Virus record (IMG/VR): IMGVR_UViG_3300017971_000007
Strand: one strand, 5' to 3'
DNA length: 64,000 bases
DNA from: a virus
A model generated the notes under the pieces. It made no database searches, was not told the origin of the DNA, and worked only from the letters and a program-made list of their open reading frames with translations. The translations under genes and the position numbers were made by a program. This document shows, piece by piece, positions 1,460-21,139 of this stretch (its first letter is position 1; each line of letters opens with the position of its first letter).

Positions 1460-1645
1460 ATGATCAGATGTGAAAAATGTGGTGGTTTTGCGACTCCGGG
1501 ATTGGCAGGCTTGCATGGCAATCCTTTAGTACCTCTGTGTCTACAATGCACGAAAGAGGTGCTAGAAAAAATGGAGAATGCGGAGAAATCCCCCAAACCT
1601 GAAGTAGTCGATGAATGGGCCAGAGTACTGGCTCTTGTTGCATAG
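1460..1645 (+). CDS. small C4 zinc-finger protein (CEKC...CLQC)
   Basis: AAGGAGG SD; two CxxC pairs; possible sigma70 promoter TTGACT-N16-CACTAT at 1354-1381. Confidence 0.7.
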   Translation: MIRCEKCGGFATPGLAGLHGNPLVPLCLQCTKEVLEKMENAEKSPKPEVVDEWARVLALVA

Positions 1646-1764
1646 CTAAAAAATACTCCTGTATTTATCTTAATTACGACTACCAATTAGATAACCAAAA
1701 ACATCCCATACACAAACCACTGTTTCATTATCACAACACTCCTTTTGTGCACTTTCACGGGAAT

Positions 1765-2331
1765 TAAAAACACGCGCATACTCGAAACCAGTATACGAGC
1801 GTTCCGACCCCGGTTTGTCCTCTCACACTGTCATCTTCGCTTCTTAGCACGGACGGACGTGCTTAGTTGCTCAGACGACGGTGCCCGTCGAGAGGAGCGG
1901 GGCCTATAGCCCTCGCATCGGTATCCAGGAACAGAGAGAAAGCCAGAAAGGCTTTCTTGTAGCTTTAAGACACTGCGCATCTGAGCTCGCTACGTACTCG
2001 GATGAGGAGGGACTCTCCCAGAGCGTTCGAGGTTCGTCCTCTTGCTCTCGCGCCGTGCTATCCCCGGAAATACCTCTCGGCATTTCTTGTATAGCTCTAG
2101 CCTCGGCCAGGCTGCTGGATTCCTGTCCAGCTCAGTCCTACCCTGCTTGACGTCACATGTGAAAGCCTTCATGTGACGCGGCGCTTGGACAGCACCCACT
2201 CCGTGACTGCGTAATCTTCACAATTACGCGGCCTCCCGTTTCACGGGGACGGCGGTACTACTGCCTGCTTGATGAGCCCGTTTAGCAGAACGGCGGTGGC
2301 TTAGGGCTCTCCCACAGGGTCCGGCTCCGGA
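1765..2331 (-). ncRNA. candidate large structured ncRNA (~560 nt), family not recognised
   Basis: no credible ORF; more than 10 hairpins including GAAAUGCC-GAGA-GGUAUUUC (2086-2067); 5'/3' ends can pair; ends in a terminator hairpin plus U tract. Confidence 0.6.
1766..1797 (-). terminator. intrinsic terminator closing the 3636->1770 transcript
   Basis: CGUAUACU-ggtttcg-AGUAUGCG followed by cgtgTTTTT. Confidence 0.6.
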
Positions 2332-3180
2332 TTAAACCAGGGCGGCCTTGACCATCTCCAAGGCTTCGCCTGCATCCACGCCCTCGGCCAACTTCGCGAT
2401 GAAGCCGCCTTTGTGGGCGAAGATAACCCGGGAATCGTCACTCAATCGGCTGAAGTCCACCCGTGGGTGGTCATCATACCGATAGAGCGCCCAACTCTCA
2501 CCAGCTCGATCACTTTTGGTAATCGAGAAGGCGACGTCTGGGCATTCTCGGGCGCGGTATTGAGCCATCGCCTTCGAAAGTTCGAAGGTTATAGTCTCTT
2601 CCGCTATGAAGCCCTGAAGGTCGTCAACTTCAACCACCTTGGCCAGCTCCCGGATAGACGAATGCACTTTACTGTAATCGTCTATCCTGGCGAGGAGATC
2701 CATTCCGAAGTCGACTAGGAATTCCGTAACGGAATCCCCCATCTCGTCTCCGAATTCCTCTCGCGCACCGAACCATCCGATTAGGACGGTTTCGATTGGG
2801 GAGAAGATCTCCTCAGGGAGCTTTTCCATCCCCAGAGCCTTGGCCGTTACAAACGGTCCCTTGGAGTCCAAGAGAACGGTTGTTCGGTACCAGCTCTGAA
2901 GCTGGAAATGCTCCTCTAATCCAAGATGCCGAACGAATAGCGACAATGCGCATTCTGGATCGGCATCCCGAGGGAGCTGGTGGTGGTCGAAGTTTAGCCG
3001 CTCCGGTTCATGACGCCCGCCGCAGTCGAGCACAAGGACTTCAGCGTCCTCAAGCTCTTCTTGCGTGGGGTCACGCCGGAAGACCGGCACGCACCCGTAC
3101 AGGGCAAGCGCGATTGCGACGGATAGAAAGTCGTCGCGGTGCGCTGCACCGGGGTGCGTGATGATCTTTTTGATCATCAT
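2332..3180 (-). CDS. MYG1/UPF0160-family DHH phosphoesterase (putative exonuclease)
   Basis: motifs IITHPGAAHRDD, VLDCGGRHEPERLNFDHHQ and C-terminal FAHKGGFIA match the MYG1 family pattern. Confidence 0.8.
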   Translation of the reverse strand: MMIKKIITHPGAAHRDDFLSVAIALALYGCVPVFRRDPTQEELEDAEVLVLDCGGRHEPERLNFDHHQLPRDADPECALSLFVRHLGLEEHFQLQSWYRTTVLLDSKGPFVTAKALGMEKLPEEIFSPIETVLIGWFGAREEFGDEMGDSVTEFLVDFGMDLLARIDDYSKVHSSIRELAKVVEVDDLQGFIAEETITFELSKAMAQYRARECPDVAFSITKSDRAGESWALYRYDDHPRVDFSRLSDDSRVIFAHKGGFIAKLAEGVDAGEALEMVKAALV

Positions 3181-3182
3181 TT

Positions 3183-3444
3183 CGACCTAGCACCGAGACG
3201 TTGGTGCTGCGCTCGTCTATTTACCTCGACGAGTGAGGCAGTCCCAAAACCGGGGGAGAACTCCGGTATACTGAGTTGACCAGACTCAGCAGTTTACACG
3301 CGTTTCATCCCGCTGGTATTGCCAGGAATCCCCGCGATCTCCTCTTTCCCCTTTTTTGCTGCCGGGGGACATCGGCTTCTGTTCCCACGCCCTAGCTCGC
3401 GTCGGGCGCGGCGGGACTGATTACCCGCAGTGCGGCCTCAGAGC
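3183..3444 (-). ncRNA. candidate structured RNA / leader (~260 nt) upstream of the MYG1-like gene
   Basis: about 8 hairpins; long-range pairs 3419-3413 with 3245-3239 and 3440-3435 with 3239-3234; no credible ORF. Confidence 0.5.
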
Positions 3445-3636
3445 CTACTCTTCGCAAGAGCAGCTCTCCCACCGTTCTTTACACGAACGGCAGTAGAGAA
3501 CTGCTTGGAAAGAGTTGACTCCGACTGGCTCGTTCCTGACATAGCAGGTCGAGTTCCAGTCGACCACCCCGATGCCCTCGGGGTGGTTCTCGGCCAAATC
3601 CTCTCTGAATTCAGAGGGGATTTCTTTCTGTTTCAT
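3445..3636 (-). CDS. small Cys-rich hypothetical protein, 63 aa
   Basis: CRSC...CSC; starts 7 nt downstream of promoter motif copy 2. Confidence 0.6.
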   Translation of the reverse strand: MKQKEIPSEFREDLAENHPEGIGVVDWNSTCYVRNEPVGVNSFQAVLYCRSCKERWESCSCEE

Positions 3637-3643
3637 TCATATA

Positions 3644-3673
3644 TCTTATACAGAAAACTGCGTATATTTTTGC
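3644..3673 (-). promoter_or_regulatory. phage promoter motif copy 2
   Basis: gcAAAAATATACgcagttttctGTATAAGA. Confidence 0.75.
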
Positions 3674-3681
3674 GTATAGCT

Positions 3682-3700
3682 AAAAAAGGGGTTTCCCCCT
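3682..3700 (-). terminator. intrinsic terminator
   Basis: AGGGG-GAAA-CCCCT followed by a T tract, right after the stop at 3704. Confidence 0.6.
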
Positions 3701-3703
3701 ATT

Positions 3704-3928
3704 TTATTTATATGGTCCGAGCACGACCGAGTCGTGCTCATATTCCGGAGTTTTGAAACACTCCGGAATAATTCCAGACTGGGTATTTGAAAATACCCAG
3801 TCTGCCTCCTCTGCTAGATATATATAATCTAAGTCAACTAACTCTAAATATACTTCATCATAGTCGGCCAGTCCGACTATGACTTCATCCTCTCCCCCAG
3901 GAGCTGTGATGATGTCATACACCTTCAT
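3704..3928 (-). CDS. acidic hypothetical protein, 74 aa (start revised to 3928, MKVYDII...)
   Basis: GGAGGT SD and promoter motif immediately upstream of ATG 3928. Confidence 0.7.
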   Translation of the reverse strand: MKVYDIITAPGGEDEVIVGLADYDEVYLELVDLDYIYLAEEADWVFSNTQSGIIPECFKTPEYEHDSVVLGPYK

Positions 3929-3943
3929 TTTTACCTCCATAAA

Positions 3944-3973
3944 TCTTATACAGATATTCGCGTATGATTTATA
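3944..3973 (-). promoter_or_regulatory. phage promoter motif copy 3
   Basis: tataAATCATACgcgaatatctGTATAAGA. Confidence 0.6.
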
Positions 3974-5227: not shown

Positions 5228-5259
5228 TTTTTCTCCTTGTTGTTTTTTGGTTACATAAT

Positions 5260-5289
5260 TCTTATACCGATAAATCAGTATTTTTTTGG
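5260..5289 (-). promoter_or_regulatory. phage promoter motif copy 4
   Basis: ccAAAAAAATACtgatttatcgGTATAAGA. Confidence 0.75.
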
Positions 5290-6230: not shown

Positions 6231-6247
6231 GTTTTCTCCTTTATAGC

Positions 6248-6277
6248 TCTTATACCTACACAAACGTTTATTTTTCG
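6248..6277 (-). promoter_or_regulatory. phage promoter motif copy 6
   Basis: cgAAAAATAAACgtttgtgtagGTATAAGA. Confidence 0.75.
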
Positions 6278-21083: not shown

Positions 21084-21109
21084 TATTTTCTCCTTTTCTG
21101 ATTCATTAT

Positions 21110-21139
21110 TCTTATACAGAAAAAGGTGTATATTTTTGC
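21110..21139 (-). promoter_or_regulatory. phage promoter motif copy 7
   Basis: gcAAAAATATACacctttttctGTATAAGA. Confidence 0.75.

Follow-up and report, generated by a model that had tools for sequence, protein, structure and literature searches.

What is encoded by the gene-free, hairpin-rich stretch which interrupts an otherwise gene-dense phage genome? The stretch occupies positions 1765-2331 of the window, i.e., of the whole 64,000-nt DNA sequence analysed here (IMG/VR record IMGVR_UViG_3300017971_000007), which looks like a part of a large phage, having a virion structural protein match and no tRNAs detected by ARAGORN. The initial annotation proposed it as a candidate for a new large structured non-coding RNA of the minus strand, comparing it in size to ROOL and GOLLD. 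Our data support this proposal with two corrections: only the central ~200 nt belong to a conserved family, and the RNA is not free-standing but is tied to the upstream MYG1 gene, which was not mentioned in that annotation.

The stretch belongs to a GC-rich island (0.51-0.62 against 0.39-0.44 in the flanks), which is wider than initially reported, extending over about 1765-3640 and including the MYG1 gene. Since the closest MYG1 relatives sit in GC-rich contigs, one can suggest that the module was imported from a GC-richer phage. On the minus strand the island reads as one unit, composed of the following parts:

3631..3670 (-), promoter-like repeat (its promoter role is inferred) overlapping the start codon of the first ORF of the unit; a terminator-like hairpin of the preceding unit lies at 3686-3700.
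3445..3636 (-), Cys-rich ORF of 63 aa with no family match, the first gene of the unit; its reality is uncertain.
3181..3444 (-), spacer of 264 nt upstream of MYG1, not detectably structured.
2332..3180 (-), gene for a MYG1-family (DHH-type) phosphoesterase of 282 aa.
2320..2331 (-), 5' motif of the RNA, starting at the base after the MYG1 stop codon and pairing in this copy with 1803-1813.
2118..2319 (-), lineage-specific 5' expansion of about 200 nt with several hairpins, located where relatives have one short variable hairpin.
1921..2117 (-), conserved core of the RNA family, helices H3 to H8.
2099..2113 (-), H3 hairpin.
2057..2095 (-), H4, with an outer helix (2091-2095 with 2057-2061), a purine-rich internal loop with invariant ACA and GGGG (2062-2065) and an inner 8-bp hairpin with a GAGA loop (2067-2086).
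2020..2048 (-), H5 helix enclosing the small hairpin H5b (2029-2041).
2005..2019 (-), H6 hairpin with the pentaloop AGUCC (2010-2014).
1937..2003 (-), divergent 3' part of the core, with a longer H7-like hairpin (1979-2003) having no free loop for the family's pseudoknot, and a further hairpin at 1937-1957.
1803..1920 (-), lineage-specific 3' extension with a long hairpin (1818-1896) and the 3' strand of the closing helix (1803-1813).
1765..1802 (-), terminator-like hairpin (1775-1797) followed by a U run, taken as the end of the transcript.

Convergent plus-strand ORFs follow the terminator-like hairpin. The promoter-like repeat represents a five-copy direct-repeat family (3631-3670, 3931-3970, 5247-5286, 6235-6274, 21097-21136) of ~40 nt with a TATAAGAT-like box, which lies a few bases before minus-strand start codons and looks like a phage-specific early promoter plus stem-loop cassette boundary. 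The same motif occurs at about 1575-1605 of contig L013, which is probably a relative of this phage.

To find out whether the stretch folds better than expected by chance, we compared it with dinucleotide-preserving shuffles. The minus-strand RNA folds to -245.4 kcal/mol against -204.9 +/- 7.0 for the shuffles (z -5.82, with none of 100 shuffles folding as well), while the plus strand gives z -3.98. Considered by parts, the 5' third gives z -2.0, the central core z -2.3 and the 3' part (1765-1920) z -4.6. The minimum-free-energy fold of the minus strand contains nearly every stem listed in the initial annotation (1846-1863, 1937-1957, 2067-2086, 2114-2131, 2150-2179, 2209-2229, 2235-2247 and 2274-2309) as well as the closing helix between the 5' and 3' ends (2321-2331 with 1803-1813), while the stem at 1876-1890 folds as a part of the longer hairpin at 1818-1896. 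A 9-nt direct repeat is indeed present twice (2272-2264 and 2150-2142), but by a rough estimate about 0.6 such pairs are expected by chance in 567 nt, so it carries no weight. In contrast to the stretch itself, the 264-nt spacer upstream of MYG1 gives z -0.52 (56 of 200 shuffles fold as well), shows no similarity to other loci and has no hit to the covariance models described below.

The stretch is “ORF-free” in the useful sense. Short ORFs of up to 89 aa exist but have no Pfam match, no frame stays open across the related copies, and several copies have stops in all six frames. Moreover, an independent gene caller placed no gene there on a near-identical contig from another assembly (L124, one mismatch in 6177 bases); the 63-aa ORF at 3445-3636 was not called on this contig either.

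No known RNA family was recognised. Rfam 15 gave no hit at gathering score in the whole window, and at E up to 10 across 1500-3800 it gave only scattered chance-level matches, with none to RNase P, tmRNA, ROOL, GOLLD, introns or ribozymes; the related loci, eleven of which were searched, were also negative for these families at the RNA. The method does detect a group I intron elsewhere (RF00028, 63.9 bits, L004 1964-2225), which interrupts a thyX (Thy1) gene in a related phage contig, while the RNA studied here follows a complete gene rather than splitting one. ARAGORN found no tRNA or tmRNA in the window or in any related locus. The AGUCC loop sits in a local 5-bp hairpin and not in a long-range P4-like helix as would be typical for RNase P RNA. 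No match to hammerhead, twister, pistol, hatchet, HDV-like or glmS ribozymes was obtained in the window or in eleven related loci; a CUGAUGAG string at the cut end of the related locus L016 does not support a hammerhead, since the stem order does not fit and Rfam is negative. A small recurring hairpin in L016 (1265-1317) and L013 (about 1830-1870 and 2095-2135), whose loop can pair with a downstream GCU-containing segment, the pairing covarying between copies, also has no Rfam match, so that its preQ1-like reading is not supported.

The upstream protein is assigned to the MYG1/UPF0160 family (Pfam PF03690, 36.4 bits against a cut-off of 22.1). Its residues 5-69, including the N-terminal His/Asp motifs and DHH, align with the solved MYG1 exonuclease, and H9, D16, D52, D65, H66 and H67 are invariant in 16 relatives, although only the N-terminal ~65 residues match the Pfam and PDB sequences. 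MYG1 is a 3'-5' RNA exonuclease (PMC6582341), and its metal-binding, catalytic motifs are intact here.

Importantly, among 465 homologues of this protein, a small clade of eight is 60-66% identical, and for seven of them (L002/L003, L004, L005, L006, L011, L012, L016) the DNA could be read. In each of these loci and in the window, which makes eight loci in total, a related non-coding sequence with a similar CCG-rich 5' motif starts at or within a few bases of the MYG1 stop codon. The flanking genes differ from locus to locus and the small upstream ORFs are not homologous, so MYG1 plus the RNA is the only conserved module. The shortest member, L006, is 217 nt from the stop codon to the U run, and its last helix doubles as the terminator stem.

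A motif scan of IMG/VR revealed a 57-kb GC-rich viral contig (G001) with three more divergent copies at 818-972, 2193-2359 and 3088-3274. Each lies about 95 nt after the stop of a different, unrelated small ORF, and two of them (copies A and B) are followed directly by a strong terminator. This contig also encodes a MYG1 protein, 43% identical to that of the window, 4.3 kb downstream, so the link to MYG1 there is only same-genome. Its first 3700 nt represent an RNA-rich region, with a tandem ~112-nt duplication of a D-arm-less tRNA-like element (about 187-425) and three repeated cassettes of leader, small ORF, RNA core and terminator. An acceptor plus T-arm minihelix follows each core, directly after copies C and A and about 290 nt after copy B (near 1040, 2392, 3560), none of these being called by ARAGORN.

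To define the family, we built a covariance model on ten sequences (R1: 202 positions, 43 pairs), which recovers all copies at 74-209 bits and finds exactly one hit in the window, 1921-2117 on the minus strand (120.8 bits, E 2e-37); a rebuilt model (R2) gives the same picture (115.7 bits). Altogether, eleven distinct copies were revealed in nine genomes or contigs of uncultured phages. Their common core has eight predicted helices plus a pseudoknot: H3, a hairpin; H4, with an outer helix, a purine-rich internal loop with invariant ACA and GGGG and an inner 8-bp hairpin closed by a GNGA-type loop; H5, enclosing a small optional hairpin (H5b), which is absent in two copies of another phage; H6, a 5-bp hairpin with a pentaloop AGUCC identical in all eleven copies; H7, whose loop pairs with a downstream segment to form the pseudoknot; and H8.

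Covariation within this core is strong. Counted over 47 pairs and 11 distinct sequences, 92.5% of cells form standard pairs against 38-45% when the 3' partners are slid by 1-3 columns, 36 pairs have changes on both sides, and the covariation score is 0.68 against 0.09-0.17 for the slid versions, while none of 500 shuffles reaches any observed measure. All five pairs of H3 and 10 of 13 pairs of H4 (96-99% of cells paired) show double changes, H6 is 100% paired with 3 such pairs, and in the pseudoknot 4 of 5 pairs show double changes at 67% pairing, which is limited by alignment shifts. The alignment was fitted to the model, which inflates the pairing percentages somewhat; however, the slid controls and the many independent pair types per position (for example, five types at several H4 and H7 positions) make an artefact unlikely. 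Numerous G-U pairs (for example, columns 42/49, 39/52 and 89/101), which would be A-C mismatches on the other strand, place the RNA on the MYG1 sense strand.

In the window copy, all invariant columns are present and helices H3-H6 fit the family well, while the H7/pseudoknot/H8 part fits the consensus poorly and no pseudoknot is evident. The remaining ~370 nt of the 567 nt, including the ~200-nt insertion at the variable hairpin and the ~120-nt extension after the core, are lineage-specific, and neither addition has detectable relatives; therefore, the comparison with the size class of ROOL and GOLLD holds for this copy only. Other lineages add different modules after the core: L004 (5130-5230), L005, L012 (2050-2150) and L016 (1160-1250) share a second conserved structured domain, and L002, L004, L005 and G001 have T-arm-like minihelices, none of which is found in the window.

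The family is rare. Pattern scans of viral contigs gave false positives inside ORFs (L009, L010, L025, L026) or nothing, the single metagenome scan re-found only the contig of L004, and representative prokaryote genomes gave 0 hits, while 79 hits obtained with a looser pattern were all rejected by the model. GenBank phages showed no blastn match to the RNA and no tblastn match to the protein. Seventeen more distant IMG/VR MYG1 loci (26-47% identity) have no copy within 10 kb, and L001, L007 and L013 also lack it, indicating that MYG1 does not generally need this RNA. A 236-nt gene-free gap after one distant phage MYG1 gene (L111 10931-11166) folds well (z about -5 with simple shuffles) but does not match the family and may be a different RNA.

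We consider it very likely that the stretch 1765-2331 encodes a member of a new structured RNA family. The absence of a spacer or promoter separating it from the stop codon suggests that it is co-transcribed as the 3' tail of the MYG1 message, running from the promoter-like repeat near 3650 to the terminator at 1797-1775, with the function probably carried by the core and the two ends of the enlarged copy clamped by the closing helix. Every copy lies about 0-100 nt after an ORF stop, a terminator follows directly in the window, in L006 and after G001 copies A and B, and all nine genomes with the RNA encode MYG1. Most likely, the RNA represents a structured 3' module which engages the phage's own exonuclease, either stopping the enzyme or binding it, and so protects or autoregulates the messages that carry it; it might also persist as a stable RNA after processing. 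In the absence of expression data the transcript, its ends and any processing are inferred, as is any interaction with MYG1, and we regard a functional link with MYG1 in cis as about as likely as not; the adjacency within one MYG1 subclade could be inherited synteny.

Among the alternatives, the one which survives best, although it remains tentative, is a free trans-acting RNA cut from the message and forming a ribonucleoprotein with MYG1 as a scaffold, adaptor or specificity subunit, as Y RNA tethers Ro60 to PNPase. In addition to the gene linkage, it is supported by the highly conserved unpaired nucleotides (AGUCC, GGGG, ACA), which suit protein recognition, by the three divergent paralogues in G001, as Y RNAs have, and by the T-arm-like modules of several relatives, which could direct tRNA-type processing, one of them giving a sub-threshold YrlA hit. 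However, no promoter or processing site is evident, the window, L006, L011 and L012 have no T-arm module, and most MYG1 genes have no such RNA. A similarly speculative possibility is that the RNA is a dedicated subunit or gate of the exonuclease, encoded at the 3' end of the enzyme's own gene, which would direct, restrain or shield its 3'-5' RNA degradation, for example, sparing marked phage messages while other RNA is degraded.

Somewhat less likely is a 3'-UTR element working independently of MYG1, such as a stabiliser against host 3' exonucleases, a boundary element, or a conserved flank that helps gene cassettes recombine. The location of all copies at the 3' end of an ORF, the three different small ORFs of G001 carrying it in a repeated arrangement, and the position of the window unit between repeated promoter and terminator elements agree with this possibility. 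Nevertheless, a simple hairpin is enough to block host exonucleases, while a 200-nt pseudoknotted fold with invariant loops implies specific recognition, and all nine genomes with the RNA have MYG1.

A new self-cleaving or processing ribozyme, separating the MYG1 message from downstream RNA, is improbable. The gene-RNA cassettes in G001 resemble ribozyme-flanked gene clusters and junction nucleotides are conserved, but no known ribozyme model matches, the core is larger than most small self-cleavers, and the terminator following directly in the window, L006 and two G001 copies means that cleavage is not needed to end the message there. Still less probable is a ligand-binding aptamer acting as a sensor or sponge, for example, for a nucleotide signal that a DHH-type phosphoesterase could degrade. 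The compact fold with invariant internal-loop and loop nucleotides would suit it, and DHH-family enzymes may include cyclic-dinucleotide phosphodiesterases; however, the position at the transcript end with convergent genes downstream gives it nothing to regulate, no alternative terminator/antiterminator pairing was seen, and there is no resemblance to known riboswitch classes. Finally, a decayed gene or chance hairpins in imported GC-rich DNA, although GC-rich DNA folds well in general and the flanking additions have no homologues, are very unlikely and for the core already contradicted by the shuffles, by covariation across 11 copies in different genomic contexts, and by the absence of a conserved frame.

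New structured RNA families with this much covariation are uncommon, and most phage examples still lack a function. The novelty concerns the family and the fold, while the biological role may yet prove ordinary. If the link to MYG1, whose role in phages is unknown, holds, it would show how a phage shields or controls its own messages while carrying an RNA-degrading enzyme, and it would give MYG1-family enzymes an RNA partner; if it fails, the RNA is still a new, compact, pseudoknotted 3'-end module suited to structural study.

Comparison with known systems shows partial similarities. Like Ro60 (Rsr) with Y RNAs or YrlA (RF02553) in bacteria and phages, this is a structured RNA genetically tied to an RNA-decay or RNA-quality-control protein, with several paralogues possible per phage and tRNA-like (T-arm) modules next to some relatives; however, no Ro60/TROVE gene was found among the neighbouring genes, the only YrlA signal (22.8 bits against a gathering score of 69) is in one relative (L002 5117-5223) and outside the conserved core, and the partner here would be a DHH exonuclease. 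ROOL and GOLLD are also phage-borne, large (as this copy is), richly structured and of unknown function, but neither Rfam model matches, only ~200 nt are conserved here, and this RNA is fused to the 3' end of a protein gene. The omega/reRNA of TnpB and IscB share the geometry, in which a structured RNA of 150-250 nt begins at the 3' end of a nuclease gene on the same strand, but the protein here is a DHH phosphoesterase and not a RuvC nuclease, no transposon ends or guide segment were identified, and there is no HEARO or other Rfam match. Clustered hammerhead ribozymes flanking genes in prophage-type regions are similar in their position directly behind a gene and in the repeated gene-RNA cassettes of one relative, while the present RNA has no hammerhead or other ribozyme signature, is much larger, and is followed by a terminator in the window, L006 and G001 copies A and B. 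Stabilising stem-loops and intrinsic terminators of phage messages also lie at the 3' end of the transcript, and in L006 the last family helix is itself the terminator stem, but eight helices, a pseudoknot and invariant unpaired nucleotides are far beyond what termination or simple exonuclease blocking needs.
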